This document shows, in pieces, positions 680 to 20,781 of a DNA stretch of 64,000 bases. Under the pieces are notes generated by a model, which worked only from the letters and a program-made list of their open reading frames with translations, searched no databases and had not been told where the DNA came from. Source of the DNA: an uncultured Bacteroidota bacterium (GTDB taxonomy: Bacteria > Bacteroidota > Ignavibacteria > UBA10030 > UBA6906); the NCBI GenBank assembly GCA_963700635.1, contig CAVOYH010000003.1, positions 1,792,001-1,856,000 on the forward strand. The letters are read 5' to 3'. Each line of letters opens with the position of its first letter. Position 1 is the first letter of the stretch. Made by a program: the position numbers and the translations under genes.

Positions 680-3316
680 TCATGTATAGTTGAGTACAAG
701 CGTTGTTTCGCGGCCGGCGGGTAGGCGGAAAAGGAGACGGGCAGGGTGCCCGGGAAGTGACGTTGGTGGAAGGTTGACGTTCTCCCGCGCATCAACATCA
801 AGGTCTGCTTCGCAGCCGGCCGGGATACGGACGGTCAGTTGCCTGTTCCCCTTCTCGCCTTCCGTCTGGAAAAACAGTTCTCCCCGGGGAGTTGGTACCG
901 CGAGCGTCACTGTCGTAAGATCGGCAGGCTGGGGTCTGATGCGACAACGTGCGAAGCCCGGAGCCGTGGGGGTGATCCCCGCAACTCCCATGAACAGGAG
1001 ATAGAGCGGTACAACCGCGCAATGGCTCCAGAGGTCGCTGCTGTCCGGTTTTGCGTCCCAGACCTCTGCGATCGTGTTGTTCAGAATGACGGAATCCATC
1101 CGGGCCCACCGGTTCCTGAATTCGTTGAGGATCACGTCAGTCCGGCCTCCCCGCGCCAGTGCCCAGTAGCGCCAGCATGCATTGGCGGGGTAGGAGAGTC
1201 CCATCTGGGGGGGAGGGTCGGCGAGCGACTCCAGCGATGGTCCGGTTCGACCTTCCGGGCAGAAATCAAAAAGGAGAGCGGTTGCGGTTGAGCGGTCGCA
1301 GAGGCGAGGCTGTTTCTGTTCTCCGAGCCAGGGGAGGTTGATGATGAACCTGCCTTCGTCATCACTCCAGAATGCGCGCACGGCGGCGTGATGGATGTCA
1401 TCGCTCATCTGTTCTGCAAACTCCGCCCATCGGCTTTCGCCGTACGCGCGTGCGAGCGGGGCGAATGCATGGCGGAGCATTGCCGCAGCGTAGAGATTGA
1501 ACGCACACTGCTTGTGTTCCTGATGTCCGCGGGCATAGGCATAGTGATCCATCCAGACGTTCGGCAGTCCGAGTCCTGTGACCGGAAGGAGCCCGTCGCC
1601 GGCGCGGATCCGATGGAGGTAGTCGACGAATCGCTGATACCGGGTCCACGGCTCCCGCACGGCGACCAGATCGCCCGTGTAGAGATAGTGGTGATAACAA
1701 TCGAAACCGAATCCGATGCTGTGGTCGAGCAGGGGTCCCCAGATCGTCATGTCGATCTGCCGCTCCATGGTGCGGGCGAGACGATCGTAGGCCGGCCAGC
1801 AATCGAAGAAGTAGCCATCGAGCATGAGGCCCTGGCTGAACGTGGAGAGGAATCGGGCCGGGAGCCGCCGTTCGCCGAAGGCCAGATACACTGCGTGGAG
1901 CTGGTGCGAACCGTCCCCGCTGTACTGCTGACGCTCGCGTCCCATACCGTCGACCGCAGTTTCCTGGGCGGAATTCAATAGAGTGTTGACAGAGGCGTCC
2001 ATGAGTCGCTGTAAGGCTGGTTCGTTCACCCGGACAACGGGCGTGACGGGCCAGGGGAAGACTCTGCGAAGGACGCCCACGTTGCGGATGCTGACGGGGC
2101 CGCGTGTCCCGCGGCAATGGATCTGGAGCCAGCGACAGCTCTCAAAATCGAACGTCTGGAAGGTTTCTCCCCCTCCCGCGCAGATGAATCGGGCCCACGA
2201 ATGGAAATGCGTATTCAGAAGAGGCGGCCCCCCTATCGTATGCCCTTCCTGCACCATGACTTCTATAATGGTGCCCGGCGGGGCTTCGATGGAGAAGAAG
2301 GGGAAACCGACGATCTGCTCGTCAAGTTCAAAGGTCAGTGCCACGGAGGAAATGCCATCGAGATCGAAATCCCAGCGGTTGGGTTCAGGCGCCCGGACAT
2401 CCGTTGCCGAGGTCTGGAACGCATCGGGAGCCAGCACATCAAAGTACTCGTCCGCCGGACGGAGCCAGGTAATGGCATGCGCTTCGGAAAGTTGCCGCAC
2501 GAGGACCGGGTGTTCGTCCAGCATTGGAATGCTGCGTGGGACAAGTGCAGATATTGTCCGGTCTGCGCGCGTATCGAGGAGATCGTCCGGGTGCGTGGAA
2601 CAGGAAGGCGGCAGGTTTGCGGGACACTGCAGGGTGAGCGGAGGCAGCCAGTCACTGTCAGGTGAGAACGCCGGCAGTTCCCATCCCCGGGGATGGCGTC
2701 GCGCGTCGAAGATCTCTTGAAAAGAGCGAACGTACCAGCGTTTGTACTGGCCGGGTTTCCAGGCCCGCGAAAGGTGGCACAGCCATTGCCGGTCGCTGGC
2801 GATGCTCTGTTTCGAACCATCTGTGCACTGCACATCGAGCGAAAAGATGAATCCCGGTTTTCCGATCGGGTGTGTGCCGTCGCCATGGCCATAGTACAGC
2901 ACGGTAACGCCGATCGTATGAGTTCCGGGAGCAAGAAAGGCCGTTACACTGATGGGATCGATTTCCATGCGGCGGGGGTCGGACGGCGCCGGTCCCCATT
3001 GCACTCGCTGTCCGTCAATGGTGAGGAGGTAGCGGCTGTCGGCGGCGATCCACCCGGTGGCATGTGTTACGGGTGAGGTGATGACGATATTCCGGCGGAA
3101 CAGGACGACCGTATTCGGTAGTGTCCGCCAGGACGGATACCAGAGCCATTCGGCGGGCGAGAGATCCAGGGTCATGGTCGCGTCTGCGTGCGGAATCGGT
3201 GCTGGTCTGGGAGGGTGCACGGATGAAACCTGTGACGGGTGAATGGTCCCCGGGAGGAGACTGAGCAGTGCGCCTCCGCTGGCGGCATGTTTCAGGAATG
3301 AACGTCGGTTGGACAT
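680..3316 (-). CDS. Alpha-L-rhamnosidase-like glycoside hydrolase (GH78-like) with Tat signal
   Basis: Start moved to MSNRRSFLK (twin-arginine motif, ATG 3316), just downstream of a promoter. N-terminal motifs ADSRYLL and EIFDAR; catalytic-region motifs DGMGRERQQYSGD, TIAEVW and LWSHCA; C-terminal RIRPQP...VPTPRGE. Confidence 0.85.
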   Translation of the reverse strand: MSNRRSFLKHAASGGALLSLLPGTIHPSQVSSVHPPRPAPIPHADATMTLDLSPAEWLWYPSWRTLPNTVVLFRRNIVITSPVTHATGWIAADSRYLLTIDGQRVQWGPAPSDPRRMEIDPISVTAFLAPGTHTIGVTVLYYGHGDGTHPIGKPGFIFSLDVQCTDGSKQSIASDRQWLCHLSRAWKPGQYKRWYVRSFQEIFDARRHPRGWELPAFSPDSDWLPPLTLQCPANLPPSCSTHPDDLLDTRADRTISALVPRSIPMLDEHPVLVRQLSEAHAITWLRPADEYFDVLAPDAFQTSATDVRAPEPNRWDFDLDGISSVALTFELDEQIVGFPFFSIEAPPGTIIEVMVQEGHTIGGPPLLNTHFHSWARFICAGGGETFQTFDFESCRWLQIHCRGTRGPVSIRNVGVLRRVFPWPVTPVVRVNEPALQRLMDASVNTLLNSAQETAVDGMGRERQQYSGDGSHQLHAVYLAFGERRLPARFLSTFSQGLMLDGYFFDCWPAYDRLARTMERQIDMTIWGPLLDHSIGFGFDCYHHYLYTGDLVAVREPWTRYQRFVDYLHRIRAGDGLLPVTGLGLPNVWMDHYAYARGHQEHKQCAFNLYAAAMLRHAFAPLARAYGESRWAEFAEQMSDDIHHAAVRAFWSDDEGRFIINLPWLGEQKQPRLCDRSTATALLFDFCPEGRTGPSLESLADPPPQMGLSYPANACWRYWALARGGRTDVILNEFRNRWARMDSVILNNTIAEVWDAKPDSSDLWSHCAVVPLYLLFMGVAGITPTAPGFARCRIRPQPADLTTVTLAVPTPRGELFFQTEGEKGNRQLTVRIPAGCEADLDVDARENVNLPPTSLPGHPARLLFRLPAGRETTLVLNYT

Positions 3317-3337
3317 AGATGGACGGGGATAGGACGC

Positions 3338-3366
3338 AGTATGGGAGAAATCGGGGAGAATGTCAA
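3338..3366 (-). promoter_or_regulatory. Sigma70-type promoter for the leftward arm
   Basis: Minus-strand TTGACA (3366-3361), 17-nt spacer, CATACT (3343-3338), 22 nt upstream of ATG 3316. Confidence 0.7.
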
Positions 3367-3398
3367 GACTGCGCAAATCTTCTTTTGGTGAAAAGGAC

Positions 3399-3427
3399 TT
3401 GACAATGCAGGAACATTCCCTTATACT
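3399..3427 (+). promoter_or_regulatory. Sigma70-type promoter for the TonB receptor operon
   Basis: TTGACA (3399-3404), 17-nt spacer, TATACT (3422-3427); near consensus. Confidence 0.8.
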
Positions 3428-3704: not shown

Positions 3705-6700
3705 ATGAGGCAACCATGGTACAAGTTCCCGTTGTGTCTCCTGCTGGCCCTGTTCGTGGCCATACCCGCATTTGCAGGGAACGGGAAGATCAGCGGTGTC
3801 GTCAAAGGTGCCGATGGCCAGGCGGTCGTCGGTGCCAACGTGACTGTCGAAGGGACGACACTTGGTGCTTCGGTTAATGTGGAGGGGAACTACTTTATTC
3901 TGAACGTCCCTCCAGGGACCTACCGGTTGCGGACGTCCGCGGTCGGCTTCACGCCCAAAGTGGTCGCGGGTGTGCAAGTCGGTCAGGACCAGATCGTAAC
4001 CATCGACGTCACGATGCAAAGTGAAGCCGTCGGCCTTGAGGAAGTTGTGGTTCAGGCCGACCGGCCGGTCGTCGACAAAAGTCAGACATCGTCGAAATCC
4101 ACCCTGCGCAATGATGAAATTGAAAGCCTCCCCGTCCGTTCGGCGGTGGGACTTGTGGCCACTTCGGCCAGCGCTTTCAACGGCTTCATCCGCGGCGGGC
4201 GTGTGACCGAGACCAAGACGATTGTGGACGGTGTGGACATCACCGACTCGTACTACGCGTATGAGGGGGACAACTATCACACGCCGTTCAAGAGATACAA
4301 CAGCGTTCCGCGCTATCAGGGTGCCGAGCTGAGCAATATCGGCGGACTGAACTTCTCCTCGGTAGAGCAGATGAACATCAACACGGGCGCCGTTGGTGCA
4401 GAGTACTCCTCGGCGACGGCAGGCGTCATCAACTACTCGCTGGCCGAAGGCCGCGGAGCCCTCAAGGGCAACCTGCTGGCCCGCGTGAGCCAGTTTGGCG
4501 GTCTGTCCTACGGAGGTCCGGACGTGTACTGGGACGGCTACGTTTATGACGCAGAAAAATATACGCTGAACCGGAGAGTCGACTCCCTTCGCAGCCTTCG
4601 CTCGGGTGGAGCTGCGGGCTCGGCCTATCAGACCCTCGTGTCCGACAGCGCTCGTCTGGATCGCTACACTTGGACCAAGGACAAATACATCAAGGAGAGC
4701 CCACAGCTGGAATTTGAGGGTTCGTTGAGTGGCAACCTCGCGGAAAACTGGGGCTTCTTCTTCACGGGCAAGTACTTCAACTCTTATGGCCGGCTCCCGA
4801 ACGAGTTCAACCGGCAGATCAACCTCACGTTGAAGACCAACTACAGCATCAGCGGCGACATGAAGCTGTCGGCCTTTGGTATCCTCACAGATCGCGGCGA
4901 GATCTTTGGCTGGAAGAACCGCGGCTACCAGGAGGGCTCACGCTTCTTCCTGGACGGCACGCCGAAGAACAATGGTGCCGATATTATCGGAAGCCTGAAG
5001 TGGACGCATGTGCTTGACCCTTCATCGTACTATGAGATTCAGGCAAGCATCGTTAACAGCAACACCGGGACCGGCTATTCCGATGACAACGGCGACGGGA
5101 TCTGTACCATCGCCGAAGACGGCGACTTCCTCACGATGGCGACCCTTGCGGAAGCCAACAAGTACATCTCCAACACCGATCTGACAAAGTTCTTCCGGAA
5201 TCAGGACGAGCAGGCCAGCTCCACCAGCTATCAGTTCCAGGCTGGCGGCACGACAGCCCGTCTGAGCCGCCCGGCGTTCTTCTATGAGAAGTTCAAAAAC
5301 CGGGTGATGTCGTTCAAAGGTGACTACACCAACCAGGTCACGGACAATCACCGTCTCCAGGCTGGTGCCCAGGTTCGCATGACCGAACTGGACATGACCC
5401 GCCGGGCGTCGTTCCTTGGCGCGCTGGATGCCAAGAAGCAGTTCTACAATGAAGTCTGGAACGTCAAACCGATGGAGATGGGCTTCTACCTGCAGGACCG
5501 GATGGAATATGCGGGCCTGATCATCAACGTCGGTGCCCGCCTCGACATGTGGGACCCGGATGCGAACGACTTCACGAACTACTTCGCCCCGTATCTGGAT
5601 CAGACCGTAAACTATGACACGCTCCCCGGCGTGGCGACAACGATCAAGGAACGTGTGACGCAACGTGAGCGGAAAGTGGACCCCTACTGGTTCTTCTCTC
5701 CACGCGTCGGTGTGTCGCACCCGATTTCCGACGTTGCCGCGATGTACTTCTCGTACTCGCGCAACTTCACGCCGCCGCCGTACTCCCGTATGTTCTCCAG
5801 CTACGACAATTTTGGCAACCTCTCGCTGCCGAACGATCCCAGCGTGCGCCAGGAGCCCTACCGCTCCAACAACTATGAAATCGGCGTGCAGTGGGAATTT
5901 CTGCCGAAGTTCGGGCTGAATTTCACCGCGTATCTGCGTGACATTGAGAACTACGGCTACAGCGGTTTTACCGTCATACCGCGCTCTGGTCCCACCGGAA
6001 CTACCTATGGTCTGGGGTTCTCGTCCGGATATGCTGATTCCCGTGGAGTGGAAATCACTCTGACGGCCCAGCGCCATCAGCTGGCCGATTTTGTGACCTT
6101 GACAGGTCAGGCTGCGTATTCGTACACCTACATCAAGGCGTCCGGGTTTGTGGGCAATGACAAGCTACATCAGACCACCTTCAGCACGTCGAACGGCGAC
6201 AGTGCCCGCCTCGCAGGGGACCTTCCGTTCGATGATACGAAGTTCTACAACAAGGTCCAGAACAACATCGTTGGCGGCTCCAGCACGCTCACGGGCGGAT
6301 TCGACCGCACGCACCGGATCACCTATCAGTTCGTGCTTGCGTTCCCCGAAGACATCACGCTGGCGTCGGTCGGCACGTTCCAGAGCGGCTTCTTCTACGC
6401 TCTCCAGAGCGTCGATCCACGCAGCAAAGGGCGCGAGCTCGCAGAAGGTCCCTGGAACAAGAACGTGAGCCTGCGTCTGGAGAAGGGATTCTCATTCAGC
6501 GGCATTCATGTTGCAGTGTTTGCGGATGTTGAGAACCTCTTCAACTGGCAGAACATCATCGGTTACGACAACACCACGACTGGTGCGACTCTCTGGGAGG
6601 ATACCAACGCTGGAAAGGCGAAGGATCCTGTGACTAATGAAGTGCTCGGACCCGATCCGACCGGCTCCAAGAGGCGTCCGGTGGGTGAAGACGGTACATA

Positions 6701-6752
6701 CTTCTACGGGTTCCCGCGGGAGTTCTACTTCGGCGTCCGGGTGAACTTCTAA
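3705..6752 (+). CDS. TonB-dependent outer-membrane receptor with N-terminal carboxypeptidase-regulatory-like domain
   Basis: 1015 aa; RBS AGGAGG; Sec signal; GKISGVV...GNYFILNVPPGTY domain; EEVVV TonB-box-like segment; plug motifs IRGGR...IVDGVDI and GAEYSSATAGVIN; barrel motifs SPRVGVSHPI and NYEIG; C-terminal Phe (GVRVNF). Confidence 0.92.
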   Translation: MRQPWYKFPLCLLLALFVAIPAFAGNGKISGVVKGADGQAVVGANVTVEGTTLGASVNVEGNYFILNVPPGTYRLRTSAVGFTPKVVAGVQVGQDQIVTIDVTMQSEAVGLEEVVVQADRPVVDKSQTSSKSTLRNDEIESLPVRSAVGLVATSASAFNGFIRGGRVTETKTIVDGVDITDSYYAYEGDNYHTPFKRYNSVPRYQGAELSNIGGLNFSSVEQMNINTGAVGAEYSSATAGVINYSLAEGRGALKGNLLARVSQFGGLSYGGPDVYWDGYVYDAEKYTLNRRVDSLRSLRSGGAAGSAYQTLVSDSARLDRYTWTKDKYIKESPQLEFEGSLSGNLAENWGFFFTGKYFNSYGRLPNEFNRQINLTLKTNYSISGDMKLSAFGILTDRGEIFGWKNRGYQEGSRFFLDGTPKNNGADIIGSLKWTHVLDPSSYYEIQASIVNSNTGTGYSDDNGDGICTIAEDGDFLTMATLAEANKYISNTDLTKFFRNQDEQASSTSYQFQAGGTTARLSRPAFFYEKFKNRVMSFKGDYTNQVTDNHRLQAGAQVRMTELDMTRRASFLGALDAKKQFYNEVWNVKPMEMGFYLQDRMEYAGLIINVGARLDMWDPDANDFTNYFAPYLDQTVNYDTLPGVATTIKERVTQRERKVDPYWFFSPRVGVSHPISDVAAMYFSYSRNFTPPPYSRMFSSYDNFGNLSLPNDPSVRQEPYRSNNYEIGVQWEFLPKFGLNFTAYLRDIENYGYSGFTVIPRSGPTGTTYGLGFSSGYADSRGVEITLTAQRHQLADFVTLTGQAAYSYTYIKASGFVGNDKLHQTTFSTSNGDSARLAGDLPFDDTKFYNKVQNNIVGGSSTLTGGFDRTHRITYQFVLAFPEDITLASVGTFQSGFFYALQSVDPRSKGRELAEGPWNKNVSLRLEKGFSFSGIHVAVFADVENLFNWQNIIGYDNTTTGATLWEDTNAGKAKDPVTNEVLGPDPTGSKRRPVGEDGTYFYGFPREFYFGVRVNF

Positions 6753-6794
6753 GCCCGACCACGAATCGCGAATACTGATCAAAGGAGTATAAGC

Positions 6795-9291
6795 ATGAAA
6801 CGTCATAGTAATCGTGCACTTGGGCTGATCGTTGTGCTGCTTGCGGTCTGTCCGGTGCTTGTCCTTGCGCAGACTGCACCCGCCACCAGTGTGAACGGCT
6901 ACCCGGGTGCAGGCGCGTTGCAGGCCGGAGACCTCTGGGAATCCTTCCTGCCGCAGGCCTTCGGCCCATACTACGGTGAGGGCGGAACAGCGGCAACAGA
7001 GGGCCTTCGCCAATTCATCCGCATGGGGAACTTCGACCGTGGCTGGACCACACCCAACGGCCACTGGCCCAGGGCATTCCCCTGGACGATGTACTGGTCG
7101 CACTACATGGTGGCAATGGCCTACGACCCTGACACCACATTCAATCCGACCAAGAAAGGCGTTGCGGCGCCGGCCACAGGAAACTGGGGTCAGGTAACGT
7201 ACAAATCCACGCTCCCCGGAGCATCGGATCCGGCACGCTACTACAGCCGCGACCCGTATTTTGTGGACTCGCGCCGCCAGCATGTCGTCTATGAAGCAGG
7301 CTGGCCGACCAACATCGGCTGCGACGTGAAGATGCGCGCCCATGCCTGGGGGGGCCCGAACTGGGGCCACTTCAACGATTTCGTGATCGTTGAAATTGAG
7401 TTCAAGAATACCGGCAACCTTGATATGAACCTGGACGGCACCATCGACAAGTCCGGCAACAACATCAAGGCGCTTGCCATGAACATGGCCGGCGAAATCT
7501 TTATGTCCATCAGCAGCTACAATGGAGGTGGCCGGAATGTCAATTCCATCTCCACAGGGTTCACCCGCATGGGTGGCATGATCATGGACCCCGATCCTGA
7601 TGGGAACCCCTGGGCATTCAGCGCCTACTTTCCAGGCACGAAGAATCAGACCCCAGCGGCCGGCGAATTCAACATGGGGTTTAATGCCCCGACACTCGGC
7701 CAGTACACGGACACCTGGAACGGCTGGGTATGGCTCGGCATCAAAGACGGCGGCCTGCCTGCAACACCGGACGTATCGACCAGCACCCTGCCCACGAAGA
7801 ACACCATCTTCGGGACAGACCCGGTCGGTGTCGGCACGCAGCGCGGCTGGTACGTCTCCGCGGGCTCGGGCGGCGGTCTTGGCCAGAGCTTCAGCAACCC
7901 GAAACAGATGTTCCGCATCAGCACGGGCGTCTTCCACAAGGACGGCGGACGTTCACGCAGCATCGCCGGTCTTGATGATTCACCGAACCCCGATTTCTTC
8001 GCCTCCGGGACCCCCGGCGACGTGACGACGTGGGTGGCGAAAGCTACCCCCGCGCAGCCGAGCGGTGACCAGAAGGGGACCGGATTCACCGCGGGTCCGT
8101 GGGAAGATGGTAAGGCCGATGCGACCACCAACTATCCGACAGGATGGGGCAAGTGGTCACAGGGGTATGTGTTCAATCACGACTTCAACGGCGACAACAA
8201 CAGTGGTGTCGGGCCGGTCGCCATCAACAACGGCTCGTCCGTGACATTCGTGATCGCGCTCGTCGGCGGGTACCGTCTGGAAGGGATCCAGAAGGCAGTC
8301 CGCGCGGCGCGCTATACGTACGCCAACAACTTTGTCGTACCGGTGCTTCCTGCGGTCCCGGAAATGAAAGTCACGAATACTCTGACCAAGTCCGTCGCTG
8401 TCGAATGGAATAACGCTGCCGAAGCGGATGCCGAGTTCCAGGGCTACAAAATCTGGAAGGCAAGCCAGTTCAAGAAATTCAAGTGGCTTGAGAATGGTAT
8501 CCGTCTGGCTGACCGGTATCAGGAGCAAATGACGCCAGGCGGAGACATGACGTCCTACAAGAAACCGGTCAACCCGAAGTTCGATGCATTTGCAGAAGTG
8601 AACAGCGGTTCCCTGAAGGGTGAGTATCAGCCCGACACATGGGGAACGTGGGAACTTGTCGCTGTGATTCCGAAGGCACAACTCGCGCAGTACGCAGGTG
8701 CGACGCCGGGTTACAACTACACGTATGAGGACAAAGACGTTGTGCTCGGGTTCTCGTACTGGTACTATGTGTCCGCGTACAAGGAAGGCACATACACCGG
8801 TCCGGGCGGCGAAACCACAAACCGGATTGAGACGACCGGGCTCAACATGAACGGAGCCGACGGTCTCTGGCACAAAACATTCCCGTTTGCGTATGTGAAC
8901 TGCCAACTTCCCGAAAGACGTGGCGGGCAAGAAAGCGATCGGCAATGTGCAGGTGGTGTATTCAGCCCTTGCACCGGCGGGCGACGTCGCAAATGTCGGT
9001 GTGCGGCCGAATCCGTATAAGCGCGCAGCGCTGCACGACAATTATTCCAACGTGTATGACCACAAGCTTCTGTTCTACAATCTGCCGCCGGACTGCAAAG
9101 TCACAATCCTGGATGTCTCCGGCCAGATTATCGATCAGATCAACTTCAGCTCCAGCGACCCGAACCTGGGGAGCGTTTTCTGGGATATGTTCTCGAAGGA
9201 CGGCATCGAAGTGGCGAGCGGTCTGTATGTCTATGTCGTCGAATCGCCGACAGGTGGCAAAAAGACCGGCTACTTCTCCATTCTCCGATAA
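6795..9291 (+). CDS. Large secreted protein with T9SS-like (FlgD/Ig) C-terminal sorting domain, split by a +1 frameshift near 8901
   Basis: ORFs 6795..9020 and 8920..9291 join when one base is removed in GTGAAC-T-GCCAAC (...FAYVN/ANFPKDVAG...), giving about 831 aa. Sec signal; Fn3-like segment (FQGYKIWK...YWYYVSAY); C-terminus VRPNPY...FYNLP...ILDVSG...WD...VASGLYVYVV...TGYFSILR. Confidence 0.8.
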
Positions 9292-9318
9292 AGTCTCACT
9301 TAACACAGAGGACACGAA

Positions 9319-10344
9319 ATGAAACGTATAACCGTTCTTCTGGCGCTCCTGCTGGCGGTGAGTCTCCTTGTCGCGGAGACGGCGAGCGCTCAGAACCGGA
9401 AGGCAGGCCTTAATGCCGCCTCCTTCCTGAAAATTGGCGTCGGCGCACGGCAGGTGGGTCTCGGGTCTGCAGTGACCTCACTGTCGGGCGACGTCACCAA
9501 CATGTACTGGAACCCGGCAGGCATTGCGCTCAACGGAGACCAGAACCTTCAGGCGTCGTTTACCTATAACAAGTGGTTTGCCGATCTGAAACAGAATGCC
9601 TTCGCTGCCTCCTATCGGTTCGAAGACATCGGAACCATCGCGATCGGCGTCATGACGTTCGGTCTGTCAGGGATCAAAGCGGACCGGGATGTGTATCCCG
9701 GAAATGCCGCCCTGCAGGCTCTACAGATCGATCAAATGACGACGGATACCTACGACTACATGGACATTCTGGCAACGATCTCCTACGCACGGTACGTCAC
9801 GGACCGGTTGGCCCTTGGCGTGTCTGCAAAGTACATCAGCGAGAAGATCGATGATCAGACTGCCACCGGCGTTGCGTTCGATGTCGGCTCCGTCTATCAT
9901 ATCGGCGTGCTCGGCTGGAGCATCGGCGCCCGCATCAGCAATCTGGGAAGCGACATCAAGTTCTACGAATACGCCTCCCCGATTCCGTTGACGTTCAGCA
10001 TCGGGACTTCGATGACGCCGTATGCAGACGACATGGGCAAACTGCTCATCTCCGTGGACGCGGTGAAACCGCAGGACGGCCTCCAGTATTATTTTGCCGG
10101 CGGCGAGTTCACGTTCATGGATATGGTGTCGGTCCGCGGCGGCTACAAATTCAACTACTCCGGCGTGGATGATGGCGGTAACAGCTTTGCTGATGCCATC
10201 AACACAAGCGTCGAGGGGTTCACTCTCGGTGCGGGCTTCAAGACGAAGTTCAGCGATTACGGTATCGGCGTGGACTATGCCTTTACCAAGATGGACCTCG
10301 TTGACGCAGTCCACCGCGTCACGCTGTCGTTCAACATGAAATAA
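9319..10344 (+). CDS. PorV/PorQ-family (FadL-like) outer-membrane beta-barrel
   Basis: 341 aa; signal peptide followed by FLKIGVGARQVGLG and MYWNPAGIA; alternating strands such as VAFDVG, ISNLG and VRGGY; ends HRVTLSF. Confidence 0.85.
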   Translation: MKRITVLLALLLAVSLLVAETASAQNRKAGLNAASFLKIGVGARQVGLGSAVTSLSGDVTNMYWNPAGIALNGDQNLQASFTYNKWFADLKQNAFAASYRFEDIGTIAIGVMTFGLSGIKADRDVYPGNAALQALQIDQMTTDTYDYMDILATISYARYVTDRLALGVSAKYISEKIDDQTATGVAFDVGSVYHIGVLGWSIGARISNLGSDIKFYEYASPIPLTFSIGTSMTPYADDMGKLLISVDAVKPQDGLQYYFAGGEFTFMDMVSVRGGYKFNYSGVDDGGNSFADAINTSVEGFTLGAGFKTKFSDYGIGVDYAFTKMDLVDAVHRVTLSFNMK

Positions 10345-10406
10345 CCACTCGTCGCAAAATGGACATGACGATGGTAGTGCTCTAACGTACCCCTGAAAAC
10401 AGGGCT

Positions 10407-10455
10407 GGGGTAGTCTCCAGGTGCAACAGCCGTAGGGGACTACCCCTTTTCTTTT
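10407..10455 (+). terminator. Intrinsic terminator after the receptor-cargo-PorV unit
   Basis: Stem GGGGTAGTCTCC (10407-10418) pairs with GGGGACTACCCC (10435-10446) with one G-U pair; 16-nt loop; followed by TTTTCTTTT. Confidence 0.75.
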
Positions 10456-10465
10456 GAAAGAGATG

Positions 10466-10526: not shown

Positions 10527-11555
10527 ATGCCTTTTCCTCTTCTTCCAACCACCGTCATCGGCAGCTACTCATTCCCGTCCTGGCTCGACCGAGTCCGCAC
10601 CCTTGGCAGGGAAGGCGTACTTTCCCCCGCCGAGGTGCAGGGTGCCCATGACGCCGCGGTCTGCTCGGCCATCCTCGACCAGGAGGTTGCGGGCGTGGAT
10701 ATCATCACCGACGGTGAGCTGCGCCGCGAGACGATGGTGAATTTTTTCTCCATGCGCATCCATGGCTTCGACATGGCAGGGAAGATGAAAGCCATCGGCA
10801 ACCTGGATCCCTCCATCCAGATGCTGGATCCAGTTGTCCGGGAAAAAGTCCGGCGCAAGGACGGCCTGGGCATGGACGAGCACTACCGGTTTCTGAAGGC
10901 CAACGCGCGTCATGCCACAAAGGTCTGTGTGACCGGGCCCCAGATGCTCGCCAAGCGTGCCACCAACGAGTTCTATCCGTCTGACAAGGAGTTGATCTTC
11001 GACCTGAGCGACATTCTCAATGTGGAGCTCAAAGGCCTTGTGGCGGCAGGATGCAAGTTCATCCAGATCGACGAACCGGTGTGGGTGGGGTATCCGCAGG
11101 ACATGCCCTGGCTCGTTGAGTCGTTCAACCGGCTCGTGGCAGGCGTCGATGCAACAATCACCCTCCATGTCTGCTACGGCAACTACCAGTTGAAGAAGCT
11201 GTTCACGGGGCAGTATGCGGAACTCTTCCCGGAAATCCTGAATACGCATGCGCACCAGATCAGTCTCGAGTTCGCCGTTTCAGATGGCGTCGGCCTGGAA
11301 TTGTTTACGCAGTACGCAACCGACAAAGAAGTTGTTGTCGGCGTGATCGATGTCAAAGATGAGTCTGTCGAAACCTCGGACATCGTTGCCCGCCGTATCC
11401 GTCAGGCGCTCAAACACATTCGTGCGGAGAAGATGATCGTCAGTCCGGACTGCGGCATGAAGTTCATGCCACGCGACCGTGCTTTTGGAAAACTGAAAGC
11501 CCTGGTCGAAGGAACTCGAATCGTCCGTGCCGAACTCACGGGCACGAAATCATAA
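10527..11555 (+). CDS. Cobalamin-independent methionine synthase II family protein (single-barrel MetE-like Zn enzyme)
   Basis: PTTVIGSY, DQEVAGVDIITDGELRR, IQIDEP; Zn ligands in LHVCYGN, LEFA and SPDCGM; 342 aa. Confidence 0.88.
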   Translation: MPFPLLPTTVIGSYSFPSWLDRVRTLGREGVLSPAEVQGAHDAAVCSAILDQEVAGVDIITDGELRRETMVNFFSMRIHGFDMAGKMKAIGNLDPSIQMLDPVVREKVRRKDGLGMDEHYRFLKANARHATKVCVTGPQMLAKRATNEFYPSDKELIFDLSDILNVELKGLVAAGCKFIQIDEPVWVGYPQDMPWLVESFNRLVAGVDATITLHVCYGNYQLKKLFTGQYAELFPEILNTHAHQISLEFAVSDGVGLELFTQYATDKEVVVGVIDVKDESVETSDIVARRIRQALKHIRAEKMIVSPDCGMKFMPRDRAFGKLKALVEGTRIVRAELTGTKS

Positions 11556-11612
11556 ACCCGTTGTTCTCTGTGGTGACCCAACGTCCCGGGCCCCAGACCC
11601 TGTCGATACCCC

Positions 11613-12458
11613 ATGCTCCTCGGCCTCGACACATACAGCCATCATCACGCGTTCGGACGACGCGGCGGCCATCACCCGGTGCAGGCCATGGATCTGTTTG
11701 CGTTCATGGACAAGGTGGTGGAGTACGGCCTCCGCGGGGTCCAGATCGATCCTCTTCATCTGCCCCAGGGGGACGACGAGTACCTCGATGTGCTCCGTGA
11801 CGAAGCCGGTGAGCGAAACCTCTTCCTTGGCTACGGCATTGAAGGCGTTGCGCCGGAATCGGTCCTCGAAGGGATCCGGGTCAGCCGGAAGATCAAAAGC
11901 CGCACATTGAGGGCGACGATCGGGTTCGTGCGGTTTGCGCAGGGAACAGACCTTCGCGCGAACATCGTGAAGACGGAACAGCATATCAGGGCCAGCGTCC
12001 ATGCATTGGAAGATGCGGACGTCCGGCTTGCACTCTGCAGCCACGCGGCCCTGCGCAGTGACGAGCTCGTCTCCCTTGTGGAGACCATTGGCAGTACGCA
12101 CGTCGGCATCTGCCTGGATCTGGGGAGCAGTCTCTGCATACTCGAAGACACGATCGATGCCGCGAAGCGTCTCGTCCCGTTTGCGGTTACGGCACAGATC
12201 AGGGACTACAGTATCGTACCGAACGCCAGCGGCTGCACCATCGAGGGCGCACCTCTCGGGCAGGGAGTGCTTCCGCTTCCGGAGCTGTACCGTATCTTCG
12301 TGGAAGAGGGGACCGTTGAACGCCTGATCCTGGAAGTCCCCATCGATGCCGGCCGTGGAGAGAAACATGCAGTCGAGCACGAGGAGGCTGCCATCAGGTC
12401 AAGCGTCGACTATTGCCGTACGGTCCTCGGCGTAGGCGCTTCGGAGCCCGGATGGTGA
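11613..12458 (+). CDS. Sugar phosphate isomerase/epimerase family TIM-barrel protein
   Basis: 281 aa; LGLDTYS start, GLRGVQI, VGICLDLGS, PLGQGVLPL, LILEV. Several usual metal ligands look substituted (ALCSH for xENH, AQIRD for xHxKD). Confidence 0.75.
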   Translation: MLLGLDTYSHHHAFGRRGGHHPVQAMDLFAFMDKVVEYGLRGVQIDPLHLPQGDDEYLDVLRDEAGERNLFLGYGIEGVAPESVLEGIRVSRKIKSRTLRATIGFVRFAQGTDLRANIVKTEQHIRASVHALEDADVRLALCSHAALRSDELVSLVETIGSTHVGICLDLGSSLCILEDTIDAAKRLVPFAVTAQIRDYSIVPNASGCTIEGAPLGQGVLPLPELYRIFVEEGTVERLILEVPIDAGRGEKHAVEHEEAAIRSSVDYCRTVLGVGASEPGW

Positions 12459-14659
12459 CGAGCATGGGCGAAACGGTGCAGGAAGCTCTGCAGTTGACGC
12501 AGGCGGTCGCCGTCACTCCCCATGGTCATGAGGTTGAGCGGACCGTCGCGCGCGCCTGGTGCGAACTTGCCGGACGTGCGATCCCCATCGTCAACGCCGG
12601 AGTCCCGGCGAAGCCGGGCGACCGTACGTTTCGCATTGCCACAGGACCGGGGGATGCTCAACCACCGGCCATGTCGTTCCGGCTCGACGCCGACGGAACC
12701 GGAGAGTTGCACGCGAGCCATCCCCACTGGCTGTATCACGCCTTCAGCACCGTGCGTGCGGATCTCCCTGATCTGACTCTCGCACAGACCGCAGCCGGCC
12801 GCACGTATACCCCCGCCTTTCCATGGATGCGCAACCTCAGCGATTTTCTGGTCGGCAGCCTCCGGACGGCACGAGGGTTCGATCCGCATGCGTATGTCGA
12901 ACAGGTCGCGGGCCAGGGATTCACGCATATCACCGTCAACGCCCTCGGCGTTCCCCGCCCCTTCGAATCCGGTCCGCCGGGTGATGTCTATTCCTGGTTT
13001 TATGACTACAGCCCCGACCTCGACCAGTTTGTCGACAGCGAATTACTGCGTGGATACTATCCGCCGGACTATCTGAGTGCGAACCTGCGGGCCCTGAAAG
13101 AACGGGCTGCGCAGGCACGACGGTACGGACTCGTGCCGGGACTCCATGTCAACTCCCCCCGCTCTATGCCGGAAGACTTCTGGAACACATACGGATTCCT
13201 GCGGGGTGCACGTGTCGATCATCCACGGGAGACCTTCCGGCCCCGCTATACGCTGGCCATGGCACACCCGCGAGTTCAGGAACACTACCGCGTCCTTGTC
13301 CAGAAGATCATGGAGGAAGTCCCCGACCTGGGGTTCATGCATGTCTGGACCAACGACAGCGGGTCGGGGTTCGAATTCGTGTCATCCCTCTACGCCGGCC
13401 GGAACGGCGGGCCGTACCTTCTCCGCGAGTGGAAAGGTCACGATGAAATTGCCCGGAAAGCGGCCGCCAACGTTCTGACGTATTATCGCCTTCTCCGCGA
13501 CGAAGCGCGACGGGTGAATCCCCGGTTCCGTGTGATCTGCGATCTCGGCCCCTTCTATGACGAACGCCGCTATATCGTGCCGGCCCTGGGCGATGGCATC
13601 GACGCGGGGAGCTTCGCCTTTTTCTCCGACCCTGGCGATGGTTCCTCCCGTGAGCCGGCGCTTCCCCCCGGAACTATGGTCCACCGCAAACTCGTTATCT
13701 GCGACAATAACCTCCCCGGGATGCCCTTCCCCGGGCTCGTCTATGAACGGCTCATGGAGGCGCGGCGGGAGGGAAGCGAAGCCGTTCTCTGCGGAACAAC
13801 GCCACACTCGGTTGCCCCCTTTGACGTAAATGGGGAGGTCGTGCGTTCTCTCCAGTCGTCACCGGAGAAGCCGCTCGGGCAGATTCTGGCGGCGACGGCA
13901 GAACGCTGGGCAGGGACCGCCCATGCACAACTCCTTGTGACTCTCTGGATGGGTGCCGACGAAGCAGTACGGAACTTCCCGGCCGATGTGCCTATGAGCA
14001 CGTTCGGATTCCCATGGTTCCGACTCTGGGTGCGGCCGTTCGTCCCCGATATCGATGCGGTATCCCCCGTCGAGCGGCGCTACTATGAGGATTTCCTGCT
14101 CGCGACCTTCAACAATCCTGCAAGGGTTGACCTCAACAACGACATGATGTGGGATTTCCTGAGCGTGAGTCAGGCCGGCGAGCGAAAGGAAATCATCGAT
14201 CGAAAAGTTCTGCCCCCTCTTGACCGGGCCCTCGATCGCCTGGCAAGGGCGCTGGCGACGCTCGGAGAGCACGAGCCTGCAGTAAAGGTGCTTGCTGATC
14301 TGCATGACCGCCTTCTGGCGGCACGATGCTATTTCACGACCATGCGGAACACGATGGCCTGGACGGAATCCGTCCACGGGTATATCGAAGCGACGACGCA
14401 GAGCGAACGTGAACGGTATCGCGGCATGTGTTGCGCGATGGTGGAGAACGAGCTCGGCAATACGCACCGCCTGCTGACGCTCTGGAATGAAACCGATGTG
14501 GACATCATACCTCTCTCTGCCGTTTCCGAATCGCTGCATATCTACGGGGAGAACTTCGGACGGCTTCTCGCACGGAAGATCGCGCTCATGGAGCGCCATC
14601 GGGAAGACCAGCCACGGATAGATCCGGAGTACATGTGGAGGATGAAGGGTGAGCAGTGA
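12452..14659 (+). CDS. Uncharacterised ~735-aa protein (family A), paralog of 54741..57077; possible glycoside hydrolase-like barrel
   Basis: Long ORF with no signal peptide. It shares LDQFV, LRGARVDHP, FRPRY, WxNDSGxGFE, LYxGRNGG and YYEDFLLAT with 54741..57077. Start is ATG 12452 or 12464. Confidence 0.75.
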   Translation: MVTSMGETVQEALQLTQAVAVTPHGHEVERTVARAWCELAGRAIPIVNAGVPAKPGDRTFRIATGPGDAQPPAMSFRLDADGTGELHASHPHWLYHAFSTVRADLPDLTLAQTAAGRTYTPAFPWMRNLSDFLVGSLRTARGFDPHAYVEQVAGQGFTHITVNALGVPRPFESGPPGDVYSWFYDYSPDLDQFVDSELLRGYYPPDYLSANLRALKERAAQARRYGLVPGLHVNSPRSMPEDFWNTYGFLRGARVDHPRETFRPRYTLAMAHPRVQEHYRVLVQKIMEEVPDLGFMHVWTNDSGSGFEFVSSLYAGRNGGPYLLREWKGHDEIARKAAANVLTYYRLLRDEARRVNPRFRVICDLGPFYDERRYIVPALGDGIDAGSFAFFSDPGDGSSREPALPPGTMVHRKLVICDNNLPGMPFPGLVYERLMEARREGSEAVLCGTTPHSVAPFDVNGEVVRSLQSSPEKPLGQILAATAERWAGTAHAQLLVTLWMGADEAVRNFPADVPMSTFGFPWFRLWVRPFVPDIDAVSPVERRYYEDFLLATFNNPARVDLNNDMMWDFLSVSQAGERKEIIDRKVLPPLDRALDRLARALATLGEHEPAVKVLADLHDRLLAARCYFTTMRNTMAWTESVHGYIEATTQSERERYRGMCCAMVENELGNTHRLLTLWNETDVDIIPLSAVSESLHIYGENFGRLLARKIALMERHREDQPRIDPEYMWRMKGEQ

Positions 14660-14743
14660 TGGGAGAAGTGGGAGTGGAGCACCGTGAAGAGTCACATGAG
14701 AAGAGCGGGGGAAGTACCAGGAACGCACATCAAGGAGGGAGTT

Positions 14744-15550
14744 ATGTACGGTGGCCGGTATGAGGTGACAGAAGAGCAGGTGACGTTCTATGAAGAGAAC
14801 GGATACATCCAGCTGCATAACGTGCTCACCGCGGAGGAAGTCGCTGTCCTTCGGGCGGCAGTGGATGTTGCGGTGGAAGACCGGAAACGACTCCAGCAGA
14901 ACTGGGGGCCACGGTCTGACGAAGGGTACGCGAAGGTCTTCCTGCAGATGGTGAATGTGTGGGAGCGCTATCCGGCGATTGAAGAGTACGTGATGAGCCG
15001 GCGCGTCGGTGGTATCGCCCGACAGCTCACACGGGCACCCTTCGTCCGGCTCTGGCACGATCAGGCACTGATCAAATTCCCCAAAGACAGCAAAGCAACC
15101 GCCTGGCATCAGGACAAAGTCTACTGGCCGATGAAGGAGAACGGCGCCCTGTCATGCTGGATGGCCCTGGACGACGTGACGGTGGACAACGGCTGCATGT
15201 CGTTCCTTCCCGGTTCGCACAAGCTGGGTCCGCTCGATCCCATTGATCTGGGCGCGGCGGGCGATGCCGACCTCCTGGAGCTCCTCCCCATCGGCCAGCG
15301 CGAAGGTGTCCGGCCCGCAGTGATGGAAATGAAAGCCGGCAGCTGCACGTTTCATAACGGATTGACGTTTCACTACGCCGGTCCCAACGTAACGGACGGA
15401 CCGAGGCGCGCAATGGTGACCATTTTCATGCCTGCAGGGACCCATTTCGTCACACAAGAACACATCGTGGGGGACAGGGGCAAGCTGACCGAAGGGGAGG
15501 AATTCCACGGTCCCCTCTTTCCTGTCGTGAGCCGGAAGGGCGCGGAATGA
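14744..15550 (+). CDS. Phytanoyl-CoA dioxygenase (PhyH) family Fe(II)/2-oxoglutarate enzyme
   Basis: RBS AAGGAGG before ATG 14744; FYEENGY, WHQD, WMALDD...NGCM..LPGSH, FHNGLTFHYAGPN...RRA. Confidence 0.9.
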   Translation: MYGGRYEVTEEQVTFYEENGYIQLHNVLTAEEVAVLRAAVDVAVEDRKRLQQNWGPRSDEGYAKVFLQMVNVWERYPAIEEYVMSRRVGGIARQLTRAPFVRLWHDQALIKFPKDSKATAWHQDKVYWPMKENGALSCWMALDDVTVDNGCMSFLPGSHKLGPLDPIDLGAAGDADLLELLPIGQREGVRPAVMEMKAGSCTFHNGLTFHYAGPNVTDGPRRAMVTIFMPAGTHFVTQEHIVGDRGKLTEGEEFHGPLFPVVSRKGAE

Positions 15551-17148
15551 AGGCCGGATCTTCCGCCGTCGCCGAAACCCGTATCACATGTCACGACCCG
15601 CGCATCGATGCATTACTTCCCCGCATCCGCCGGTTCATGGATCAGGATGTCAGCGAGATCACCGTCATGGGCTCGTTCGTCCGCGGATATCATTCGCCGG
15701 ATACCCCCAGTCTCTGGTTGCGCGATCATTCGGACATGATGCGGGGCGCCCGGTACTGGGAACGGGACATGGTCAGCATGGTCGAGTACTTTGCAGAGAC
15801 CCAGACAAAGCGGGGGTGGATCTTTGACTATGTCACGCTCGTTCCCGATAAACTCCCGTGCGAACGGGAGAACTGGGCAAAACATGTGCGCGTCCCCGTG
15901 GAAGCGGACGTGGAGTACCGGTTTGTCAACGGGGTCTATCTGGCCTGGCAGGCCACGGGCGATGATGTCTGGATGAAACGCATGCTTCCGCACTGCGAAC
16001 GTGCGATTGCCTACATTCTGAATGATCCCTGGCGGTGGGACAAGAAGCTCGGACTCGTCAAACGTGCATTCACGATCGACACGTGGGATTTCGATTACAC
16101 GGCCGGGCGGAACGAGTGGCTGAACTTCCAGATCACCGATGACACATTCTGGGGGATCATGCACGGCGACAACTCCGGGTATTATCAGGCGTTTCTTCAG
16201 CTTGCGGCGATGCAGGCCCACCTGCGGCAGCATACGCGGGCCGCGTCCTGGCGCCGGTTCGCGGCGGCGTTCCGCAAACGTGCCAACGCCGTCTGCTTCA
16301 ACGGCAGATTCTACACCCATCAGGTCCATCTCGTACCGGTGACGATACCGGGAGTGGACGAGAGCGCCCAGCTCAGCCTCAGCAATCCCATGGACATCAA
16401 CAGGGGAATGGCCACGCACGCGATGGCCGTGTCCATTCTGGACGAATACCGCCGGCGGGGTGAATCCACCGGCGCCTTCGCTCCCTGGTTCAGTATCGAC
16501 CCCCCCTTCCCGGACGGTATCTACGGCGACGAAAAACTCGTGGGCGGGGCCTATTGCAACGGCGGCATCATGCCTCTTGTGGGAGGCGAGCTCGCCCGCG
16601 CCGCACTGGAACATGGATGGGAGTCCTTCGGCGTCGACCAACTACTCCGCTATGAGCACCTCACGGGCAACGACGAAACGTATCTCTGGTATTTCCCCGG
16701 CGGAAGCCATGCGACAAAGGAAACCAGTACGAGCCCGGAAGCCTATCCGACGGATGGATGGGGAGCCTCCTCGATGCTCTACGCTCTCGTTGAAGGACTG
16801 GCAGGTGTCGTCGACGAGGCATCCCTCTTCCGGCAGGTGCGCCTTTCGCCACGATGGATGGCAGCGGGGACAGACGAAGCGCATGTGACGTGCGCCTATG
16901 GAGCTTCAGGAGCAAGCATTGCCTACGAATATGCCCATGACGCAGCGCGCCGGTCTCTTTCGATTGCGGTCCACGGTCGATGCACCCTTCGCCTTCATGC
17001 TCTCCTCCCTGCCGGAACACGCGCGAAACGGGTCCGGGTCAATGGGAGAACAGTTCCGTCAAAGACGGCCATCATTGAAACCAGTTCCTATGCCGATGCC
17101 TCCTGTCGGGTCAATGGAAAGGCTCTGATAGAAATACTCTATTCTTGA
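15547..17148 (+). CDS. Six-hairpin glycosidase-like protein of unknown specificity
   Basis: ATGA overlap with PhyH; LWLRDH, EADVEY...YLAWQATGD, DTWDF, YCNGGIMP, GWGASSM..ALVEGLAGV; C-terminal beta-rich domain; no signal peptide. Confidence 0.65.
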   Translation: MKAGSSAVAETRITCHDPRIDALLPRIRRFMDQDVSEITVMGSFVRGYHSPDTPSLWLRDHSDMMRGARYWERDMVSMVEYFAETQTKRGWIFDYVTLVPDKLPCERENWAKHVRVPVEADVEYRFVNGVYLAWQATGDDVWMKRMLPHCERAIAYILNDPWRWDKKLGLVKRAFTIDTWDFDYTAGRNEWLNFQITDDTFWGIMHGDNSGYYQAFLQLAAMQAHLRQHTRAASWRRFAAAFRKRANAVCFNGRFYTHQVHLVPVTIPGVDESAQLSLSNPMDINRGMATHAMAVSILDEYRRRGESTGAFAPWFSIDPPFPDGIYGDEKLVGGAYCNGGIMPLVGGELARAALEHGWESFGVDQLLRYEHLTGNDETYLWYFPGGSHATKETSTSPEAYPTDGWGASSMLYALVEGLAGVVDEASLFRQVRLSPRWMAAGTDEAHVTCAYGASGASIAYEYAHDAARRSLSIAVHGRCTLRLHALLPAGTRAKRVRVNGRTVPSKTAIIETSSYADASCRVNGKALIEILYS

Positions 17149-17164
17149 TGAGAGGGTCCGAATC

Positions 17165-19414: not shown

Positions 19415-19464
19415 TATCAGGCAGGGTTGGTTTTTCACGCACCAAGGAAAGTGTTGGGCTGACG

Positions 19465-20752: not shown

Positions 20753-20781
20753 ACCCCTTACTCCACAGCCTCGACCCCACA

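Follow-up and report, generated by a model that had tools for sequence, protein, structure and literature searches.

A recurrent gene module of TonB-dependent receptor, variant-tail protein and PorV/PorQ-family barrel as a candidate SusD-free nutrient-capture unit in an uncultured member of the Bacteroidota

Introduction

Glycan capture in Bacteroidota is described by a textbook model, the SusC/SusD system, in which SusD, a protein with a TPR-like helical fold, and surface glycan-binding lipoproteins capture the substrate for SusC. Here we analyse a gene module that resembles this system in some respects and departs from it in others. It lies in a stretch of 64,000 nucleotides (hereafter the window) from the genome of an uncultured bacterium of the class Ignavibacteria (Bacteroidota; assembly GCA_963700635.1, contig CAVOYH010000003.1, positions 1,792,001 to 1,856,000 of the forward strand). 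The module consists of three genes, which encode a TonB-dependent receptor, a large middle ("cargo") protein whose tail resembles type IX secretion system (T9SS) C-terminal domains, and a barrel of the PorV/PorQ family. A first-pass annotation, made from the sequence of the window alone, had proposed this triplet as a possible alternative to SusC/SusD. We hold with moderate confidence that the window carries a copy of a modular, SusD-free outer-membrane unit for nutrient capture, in which a capture protein anchored on the barrel would work together with the receptor as a counterpart of SusC/SusD.

As in SusC/SusD (RagA/RagB) loci, a TonB-dependent transporter of the CarboxypepD_reg type heads the locus and the gene of its partner follows directly, and the module is multiplied in the genome (14 copies) beside differing sets of genes for carbohydrate-active enzymes (CAZymes) and peptidases. 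Unlike in those loci, the receptor does not pass the SusC/RagA model, the partner is no SusD but a non-lipoprotein with an all-beta model and a T9SS-like tail, and the module has an obligatory third gene, that of the PorV/PorQ-family barrel.

The second and third genes recall the PorQ-PorZ and PorV-PorU pairs of Porphyromonas gingivalis, in that a barrel of the same family is proposed to hold a surface protein by an uncleaved C-terminal domain; the window barrel even scores slightly higher on the PorQ model than on the PorV model (90 vs 74 bits). They differ from both pairs in that the barrel stays under the equivalog cut-offs, the cargo is unrelated to PorZ and PorU, and the two are encoded with a TonB-dependent receptor in nutrient loci, in 14 copies.

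Another related arrangement is that of type B cargo proteins and PorP/SprF barrels, for example SprB/SprF of Flavobacterium johnsoniae, where a special class of tail is likewise linked to its own downstream carrier barrel. We know of no type B pair that is linked to a TonB-dependent receptor. Unlike in the type B pairs, the window barrel belongs to the PorV/PorQ family (NF033709) and the tail resembles those of type A proteins, PorU and PorZ. Type B orphan cargoes share one PorP/SprF carrier, according to one article (PMC12618676); similarly, four second cargo copies were found in the same type of locus as the module, one of them 7 kb from the single barrel of its triplet.

BamG is described as a 14-stranded FadL/PorV-like barrel that docks behind BamA and binds the surface protein BamH through its extracellular loops (PMC12578637). 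The arrangement of barrel, receptor and cargo that we propose would need the same architecture. The differences are that the BamG model gave 27-28 bits on three module barrels against a cut-off of 250, that BamH is a lipoprotein and not a T9SS cargo, and that the function of the BAM complex is protein insertion and not import.

The first-pass annotation knew of no functional description of such triplets, and we found no description of an operon of receptor, cargo and PorV-like barrel in the full-text literature searched, a search that left most subscription journals uncovered and does not prove absence from print. The module combines features of TonB-dependent utilisation loci with those of T9SS tail-carrier pairs.

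Results

The three genes of the module

The three co-directional genes described by the first-pass annotation are present in the window. They are listed below together with a feature that it had overlooked, a one-base frameshift within the middle gene, owing to which the C-terminal domain that it had described as T9SS-like lies in the +1 frame.

3705..6752, + strand: TonB-dependent receptor of 1015 residues (PF00593, CarboxypepD_reg)
6795..8898, + strand: body of the middle (cargo) gene, 700 residues, with signal peptide, super-sandwich and Fn3-like domains
8896..8902, + strand: site of the one-base frameshift between the cargo body and the C-terminal domain (frame comparison, contigs of relatives)
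8899..9291, + strand: variant T9SS-like C-terminal domain, in the +1 frame relative to the body; a region of 130 residues, about 100 of them folded, after a linker
9319..10344, + strand: PorV/PorQ-family barrel of the 14-strand type, 341 residues, with signal peptide (NF033709)

The receptor comprises a signal peptide, a CarboxypepD_reg domain, a plug region and a barrel. It passes PF00593 (76.6 bits vs a cut-off of 27), and its N-terminus matches PF13620 (CarboxypepD_reg; 58 bits, cut-off 32.3) and PF13715 (57 bits). The Plug model did not reach significance (E 0.01) on the window receptor and was detected on nine of the receptors scanned in paralogous modules. Thirteen other modules are headed by a paralogue of this receptor. 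We rejected an assignment to SusC/RagA (TIGR04056), as the match of 67.1 bits against a cut-off of 368 covers residues 28-166 only, that is, the N-terminal extension.

The cargo protein carries a Sec signal peptide that ends at a conserved ..AQ cleavage site. Cys is absent at position +1 of the cargo and of 32 aligned homologues, which agrees with the earlier view that the middle gene encodes a Sec protein and not a lipoprotein. An identity as SusD/RagB (PF07980) was also rejected, with no domain match, no lipobox Cys and an all-beta model of the body. The assembly (4.2 Mb in 6 contigs, 97% complete, 6.7% contamination) gave no PF07980 match at all; SusD, whose absence an alternative system would lead one to expect, was thus not found at the level of the genome.

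The barrel passes the PorV/PorQ subfamily model NF033709 over residues 33-340 (193.3 bits vs 90), which bears out the family named by the first-pass annotation, and among solved structures it comes closest to F. johnsoniae PorV (6h3i_F, E 1e-17). It remains under all equivalog cut-offs, with 90.3 bits vs 220 for PorQ (NF033711), 81 vs 325 for PorV2 and 73.8 vs 250 for PorV (NF033710). Ten other module barrels that were scanned also matched the subfamily model only (146-225 bits). We considered and rejected the possibility that the window barrel is the housekeeping PorV or PorQ, since separate equivalogs are encoded elsewhere in the genome: a PorV directly after PorU at C2:143675-144793 (NF033710, 256.5 bits vs 250), and a PorQ at C1:348920-350059 (NF033711, 231.3 bits vs 220). 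The triplet barrel is not the single housekeeping PorV, a case in which the earlier proposal would have failed.

A variant tail class linked to private barrels

The first-pass annotation had pointed to the type A model TIGR04183 as a check on the tail. The tail falls below the cut-off of this model (18.2 bits vs 23) and of FlgD_ig (21.9 vs 27), and PF18962 is not among its matches at E ≤ 1. The type B model TIGR04131 is also absent at that threshold, and CHU_C gave 12.9 bits. In NCBIfam it matches the PorZ tail (E 4e-5) and the PorU tail (E 2.6e-4) best, and the best solved matches of the tail profile are the PorU tail 6za2 (E 2.2e-4) and PorZ 5m11 (E 0.34). These matches suggest that the variant tail is likely a remote homologue of the type A domains. 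Its layout consists of a PNPY motif, an insert of 15-25 residues and then the usual beta strands.

In a census of the genome, one tail profile was made from its variant tails and another from ten type A tails of the ordinary kind. A C-terminal match was found in 138 open reading frames (ORFs), of which 13 are variant, 119 ordinary (109 outside the training set) and 6 ambiguous, the variant class being defined by at least 109 bits on the variant profile and 0-21 bits on the type A profile. A barrel gene directly follows 12 of the 13 variant-tail ORFs, none of the 119 ordinary type A ORFs and two of the six ambiguous ones; one of the adjacencies to a variant tail was corrected by hand for an over-extended barrel ORF. 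The thirteenth variant-tail ORF lies in a cluster with the order cargo, two genes, receptor, barrel. In this genome the variant tail class is confined to the cargo proteins of modules.

The two ambiguous ORFs that precede barrels are PorU, which lies before PorV, and a BNR-repeat protein. The latter, a protein of 518 residues with a PorU/PorZ-like tail (NF052228, 25 bits, far under the cut-off), is encoded at C5:195123-198587 ahead of a tandem pair of PorV-family barrels (62.6 and 164.5 bits on PorV_fam), and this set lacks a receptor gene. This set may be a divergent attachment pair of the PorZ kind.

The tail is the most conserved part of the cargo. Among 31 orthologues the tail has a mean column identity of 64%, the body of 51% and the barrel of 59%, and between the window and its paralogue on contig C6 the tail is 84% identical, the barrel 58% and the receptor 50%. 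This pattern agrees better with an interaction surface that is kept than with a signal that is removed. A review reports that the tails of PorZ and PorU are retained and bound to PorQ and PorV, and suggests that cognate PorV-like barrels shield the tail from cleavage (PMC10202324).

A predicted interface between tail and barrel

The barrel (residues 25-341, alignment of 31 rows) and the tail (residues 18-130, 31 rows) were co-folded. The runs gave ipSAE values of 0.92, 0.93 and 0.93, while all three controls gave 0.00; they agreed in at least 96% of contacts, with a partner pLDDT of at least 85. Among solved complexes 116 of 157 attain the mark that the pair passes, as do 2 of 215 mismatched pairs, rates that are approximate here because our own alignments were used. 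The predicted interface involves, on the side of the tail, the PNPYK strand, the ILDVSGQII strand, the SKDGIEVASGL stretch and the C-terminal GYFSILR, and on the side of the barrel its N-terminus and the loops at about 86-90 and 114-126. Type A tails have been seen by electron cryo-microscopy bound to extracellular loops of PorV (PMC10994853). An interface between the C-terminal domain of the cargo and the barrel, one of the checks named in the first-pass annotation, is predicted (ipSAE 0.93 vs 0.00 for the controls), which supports binding short of demonstrating it and may reflect the likeness to solved complexes of PorV with tails. By a hand count, 12 of the 25 invariant columns of the tail (about 9 expected) and 11 of the 48 of the barrel (about 8 expected) fall in the interface, an enrichment too weak to use.

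Co-occurrence in orthologous loci

A scan with one genome per species identified 74 orthologous loci, in metagenome-assembled genomes labelled Bacteroidota, Ignavibacteriota/Ignavibacteriales, Kryptonia and similar. Receptors and barrels in these loci were scored with profiles made from the paralogues of the genome under study, and two fragmented loci were merged by hand. Where both flanks were readable (52 copies), receptor and barrel were both present in 45 copies and both absent in seven, and no copy had only one of them. Where the tail and the downstream region were readable (65 copies), 54 had a variant tail and a barrel, and seven had a variant tail with no adjacent barrel. The other four had neither, three of them ending in a canonical NYPNPF type A tail and one in an unreadable tail, so that a barrel after a non-variant tail was seen in none of the 65 copies. 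PF18962 took the place of the variant tail in six of the 120 homologues listed. The recurrence of the module, 14 times in the genome and in 45 of 52 orthologues, is far beyond chance.

Four of the seven barrel-less copies lie inside the same type of locus, directly upstream of a homologue of the 533-residue gene that also follows the window module (L052b at L052:9001-11496, L080:5837-8341, L050:338-2866 and L077:22-1650). In L052 the barrel-less copy is found 7 kb downstream of a full triplet. This arrangement suggests second cargoes that share the one barrel of their locus.

Modules within the genome

The genome contains 25 PorV_fam matches, 18 of them above the cut-off. By local BLAST and ORF maps we identified 14 modules in which a receptor of the CarboxypepD_reg type and a PorV-family barrel flank a large protein. 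Eleven are contiguous, including the one in the window and one with a receptor split into two ORFs, two are broken, and one (C3:404-415 kb) is rearranged to cargo, two genes, receptor, barrel. The middle proteins range from 590 to 1283 residues and have only their tails in common, their bodies being unrelated; no Pfam family was found at E ≤ 1e-4 in the 12 whole or split middle proteins scanned.

The distances among receptors, tails and barrels are congruent across 11 modules (Mantel r 0.85-0.90, p 1e-4, 9999 permutations; with the C6 paralogue left out, r 0.75-0.83). This comparison of the histories of the three parts, suggested in the first-pass annotation, shows that they duplicate and diverge as a unit; congruence here means joint inheritance and not binding.

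The proximity to CAZyme genes that had been expected of the triplets is seen in the genome, as modules adjoin genes for glycoside hydrolases (GH18, GH31, GH38, GH63-like, GH78-like, GHL10) and peptidases. The neighbouring sets include GH18 with an M23 peptidase; GH38 with GxGYxYP; GH63-like genes beside one that encodes an FGE-sulfatase domain; GH31 together with LacI and MalK; an M14 peptidase; GHL10 together with NlpC/P60; PIG-L with NHL-repeat genes; and histidine kinase/LytTR pairs.

A complete paralogue of the window locus, with an intact cargo of 848 residues, is found at C6:13599-35492. It extends over about 19 kb at a protein identity of about 50-58%, in the order GH78-like, receptor, cargo, barrel, MetE-like, TIM barrel, 743 residues, PhyH, 510 residues, 688 residues, aminotransferase, symporter. 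Compared with the window locus, the receptor is 49-50% identical, the cargo body 54%, the tail 79-84% and the barrel 56-58%. Contig C6 (182 kb) could in principle derive from a related organism, given the 6.7% contamination of the bin.

The broken modules (C3:1651013-1658642 and C4:60512-67769), in which receptor, cargo and, in C4, the barrel are spread over several ORFs, have intact close paralogues at C6:160-168 kb and C3:1885-1893 kb. Either decay after duplication or misassembly of repeated sequence may account for the breaks.

Several PorV-family barrels also stand beside PIG-L-domain genes (about 790 residues) and NHL-repeat genes (C6:157589-159964, C3:1658747-1661991). One NHL-repeat gene (C3:813112-814212) precedes a PorV2-like barrel at C3:814374. 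Another (C3:403529-404626) lies directly after the module barrel at C3:404626, and others are found two genes past two further module barrels.

Fold of the cargo body

At E ≤ 1e-3 the cargo body matches 157 homologues, none of which carries a name. Searches of Pfam and NCBIfam gave no family for it, the ESM Atlas likewise gave no named family, and no active-site motif was recognised in the cargo. An AlphaFold model of the 700-residue body, built on an alignment of 33 rows, is confident (pLDDT 87.4, pTM 0.90). In the model, residues of about 30-515 form a beta super-sandwich of the galactose-mutarotase-like type, followed by Fn3-like domains (about 519-700).

The PDB matches obtained with Foldseek were weak (best E 7.5e-4, TMq no higher than 0.26), and the super-sandwich emerged only from an exhaustive search with VIA-align, which gave Z scores of 14-17 to the N-terminal super-sandwich of GH15, GH65, GH94 and GH116 enzymes. 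The matches include dextran dextrinase (9ju0, Z 16.8, root-mean-square deviation 3.5 over 264 aligned residues), cyclic glucan synthase (8rf9, Z 16.6), a GH65 enzyme (7fe3, Z 15.7), kojibiose phosphorylase (3wiq, Z 15.6) and glucodextranase (1ulv, Z 14.7); galactose mutarotase-like proteins reach Z of about 11 and the periplasmic domain of YidC 12.2. The (alpha/alpha)6 or TIM catalytic domains are absent from the body model. The modelled fold fits carbohydrate binding without proving it.

The frameshift in the window copy

The ORF that starts at 6795 reads in frame 0 to ...PFAYVN and then continues as Cys/Arg-rich nonsense to a stop at 9020, while the +1 frame at the junction reads ANFPKDVAGKK... 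and matches the homologues. Close homologues of 830-870 residues run uninterrupted across the junction as ...PFAxxNANFPKxAAG... Contigs of close relatives from two public runs of different studies (X1 and X4) are one base shorter at 8902, and the contig of one relative covers all 1201 bases with 47 differences. The comparison is with relatives of the strain, the best public run sharing 0.36 of its sampled words. The window carries a one-base insertion compared with these relatives, which is either an assembly error or a recent real inactivation. We rejected a middle gene that ends at 9020, given the read-through of the homologues and the contigs of the relatives.

Contigs of the metatranscriptome run X2, which are 97-99% alike, cover 8994-9500 including the junction of tail and barrel (9256-9500). 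Contigs cannot show transcription, and we did not use them as evidence.

Surroundings of the module and distribution in the phylum

The remaining features of the locus are the following.

680..3376, - strand: divergent GH78-like gene (alpha-L-rhamnosidase family) with Tat signal; Bac_rhamnosid_N/6H/C and TAT_signal_seq domains
3399..3427, + strand: sigma-70-like promoter candidate TTGACA-17-TATACT, 11 of 12 consensus positions, in the divergent intergenic region of 328 nucleotides
10407..10456, + strand: intrinsic terminator, a 12-bp G+C-rich hairpin followed by UUUUCUUUU, 63 nucleotides past the stop codon of the barrel gene
10527..22662, + strand: conserved downstream genes, namely MetE-like (Meth_synt_2), xylose-isomerase-like TIM barrel, 748 residues, PhyH dioxygenase, 533 residues, GH15-like of 749 residues, class-V aminotransferase and Na+/solute symporter (SSF)

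The first-pass annotation had given the triplet its own promoter and terminator. The terminator stands, as the region 10398-10458 folds at -28.7 kcal/mol with a z score of -4.08, equalled by none of 200 shuffles. The promoter is a consensus match: the region holds 5 promoter-like sites vs 3.3 +/- 1.7 expected from shuffles, which is no excess.

With a TonB-dependent transporter and genes for GH78-like and GH15-like proteins and an SSF symporter, the locus is a polysaccharide utilisation locus (PUL) in the wide sense. The downstream 748- and 533-residue proteins have no Pfam or NCBIfam family. The conserved set of the locus, which joins GH78-like, GH15-like and MetE-like proteins with PhyH, an isomerase-like TIM barrel, a class-V aminotransferase and a Na+/solute symporter, is unusual for a glycan locus. 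Among the 74 orthologous loci, in counts limited by the length of the flanks, neighbours were the MetE-like gene (40), the 533-residue gene (33), the 748-residue gene (32), the GH15-like gene (19), PhyH (13), the aminotransferase (9) and the symporter (3). In 7 of the 74 loci the receptor is preceded by a homologue of the GH78-like gene, again as far as the flanks reach, and a paralogue is in the same place at C6.

To describe the distribution, 151 genomes of the phylum were evenly drawn; the counts saturate at about 13 scored candidates per genome and are descriptive, as related genomes are not independent. In the class of the window (37 genomes), 30 genomes have at least nine PorV_fam matches and seven have 3-5, and a SusD match is found in only nine, at one or two per genome. 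In SusD-rich families the number of PorV_fam matches is mostly 2-6.

Type IX secretion genes

The proposal of the first-pass annotation needs a T9SS in this organism. The genome encodes SprA (802 bits), PorU (973 bits), PorV and PorQ, as well as the 119 ordinary type A tails and a PorV2-like barrel (223 bits vs 325); on the part of the motor and ring, four models revealed neither GldM nor GldK, as discussed below. Its T9SS is in this sense recognised in part.

Discussion

The working model that follows from the preferred reading, a SusD-free capture unit with a barrel-anchored cargo, is this. The Sec pathway exports the middle protein, as its signal peptide shows, and the variant tail would take it through the outer membrane by way of the SprA translocon. 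The downstream-encoded PorV/PorQ-type barrel would then capture the tail as its cognate carrier, as the co-fold and the one-to-one genetic link suggest, and would probably serve as a permanent non-covalent anchor, as PorQ does for PorZ and PorV for PorU. We infer that the cargo is retained on the barrel because the tail is conserved and resembles those of PorU and PorZ. The super-sandwich protein would be held at the cell surface beside the TonB-dependent receptor, where it would capture glycan, or fragments released by the secreted enzymes of the locus, for import. It is the strict co-occurrence and the gene order that suggest cooperation of cargo and receptor, and the modelled fold that suggests glycan binding by the cargo.

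Several observations weigh against this model. If the extra base is real, the frameshifted cargo of the window may be inactive. The tail lies under the curated thresholds for type A domains, and secretion by the T9SS is thus something that we infer. The co-fold may have passed because of likeness to solved complexes of PorV with tails; close cousins of a true partner pass as well, so that the prediction is no sign of a preference for this barrel over the housekeeping PorV. Seven orthologues with a variant tail have no adjacent barrel. Enzymes (aldose epimerases, lyase domains) and YidC share the super-sandwich fold, which therefore does not decide between binding and catalysis. GldM (TIGR03517, PF12081) was not found in the genome, the GldM model matching no control genome either, GldL and GldN were not searched, and GldK (TIGR03525) gave only 23-bit matches on a gene of a PUL, the sole FGE-sulfatase domain (PF03781) being that of the same glycan-locus gene; the motor and ring of the T9SS are either too divergent to detect or missing in this lineage. 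Lastly, the family f27 combines 3-12 PorV_fam matches with 1-10 SusD matches, so that one system does not preclude the other.

It is rather doubtful, in our view, that the window copy is a decaying pseudogene module whose tail-less cargo stays unexported while the intact paralogous locus on C6 does the work. The one-base insertion stands against all homologues and the contigs of two close relatives, at a place with no long homopolymer; two other modules of the genome are broken at several places each (C3:1651-1658 kb, C4:60-67 kb), and a complete paralogous locus exists. Set against this, the break is single, both frames are otherwise intact and highly similar to homologues (68% for the body, 88% for the tail, against the closest), and the receptor, the barrel and all downstream genes are intact. 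Single-base indels are common in long-read assemblies, with which contigs of 1.9 Mb would be compatible. We give less weight still to the idea that the barrel is a dedicated shuttle and not an anchor, which collects the tail at SprA for a cargo that PorU then cleaves and that is released or lipid-linked, the link to the receptor being one of co-regulation. PorV itself shuttles, and type B tails need cognate PorP/SprF barrels, some of them common to orphan cargoes, according to two sources (PMC12618676, PMC10202324). Several cargo copies seem to share one barrel, PorU is encoded in the genome, and the co-fold indicates binding at most and not permanence. Against a shuttle, conservation is higher in the tail than in the mature body, and the best matches of the tail, those of PorU and PorZ, are both reported to be retained. 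The joint presence or absence of receptor and barrel in 52 of 52 copies is tighter than one would expect if the barrel did no more than assist secretion, and a single PorV serves the 119 ordinary type A cargoes of the genome.

Also unlikely, and compatible with anchoring, is that the middle protein acts at the surface as a glycoside hydrolase, lyase or epimerase of a family not yet described, the module coupling extracellular cleavage to import. Aldose 1-epimerases use the galactose-mutarotase-like fold for catalysis, and several lyases and hydrolases contain it (3mwx, Z 11.3; 5xq3, Z 11.7; 3a0o, Z 10.9), many columns of Asp, Glu, Arg, Tyr and Trp are invariant, and the middle proteins of other modules are large (590-1283 residues), with unrelated bodies. 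The best structural matches, however, cover only the non-catalytic N-terminal domain of GH15, GH65, GH94 and GH116 enzymes, with no (alpha/alpha)6 or TIM domain, and neither a family nor an active-site motif was recognised. Very improbable is a FadL-type channel for a small hydrophobic or amphipathic compound, parallel to the receptor, with the tail handled by the housekeeping PorV. PorV is placed in the FadL family by one report (PMC12578637), and two module barrels gave weak Toluene_X matches. Against a channel, the window barrel scores twice the PorV/PorQ subfamily cut-off, such barrels directly follow 12 of 13 variant tails and none of 119 ordinary ones, and the interface of tail and barrel is predicted with high confidence.

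A bolder extension of the capture-unit reading is tentative. The "PNPY-insert" tail and its private PorQ-like barrel may constitute a third class of type IX cargo and carrier that builds SusD-free "utilisomes", in which the barrel would dock on the transporter as BamG does on BamA, the cargo would lie over the mouth of the transporter, and one barrel could serve two cargoes. Such units might account for most polymer uptake in the Ignavibacteria-like Bacteroidota, the majority of which lack SusD, possibly with a T9SS that lacks a recognisable GldKLMN motor.

The analysis of the window adds to the first proposal a genome census that links the tail class to private barrels, housekeeping PorV and PorQ genes apart from the module, the co-occurrence in orthologues, second cargoes that seem to share a barrel, the super-sandwich fold, a controlled co-fold and the frameshift. 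If the capture-unit reading is true, it would explain how abundant degraders of soil, sediment and groundwater feed, and would add a new class of tail and carrier to type IX secretion. It would also give a use to unexplained PorV/PorQ paralogues and large "hypothetical" proteins, and would provide a genomic marker, like SusC/D pairs, for substrate-utilisation loci outside Bacteroidia.

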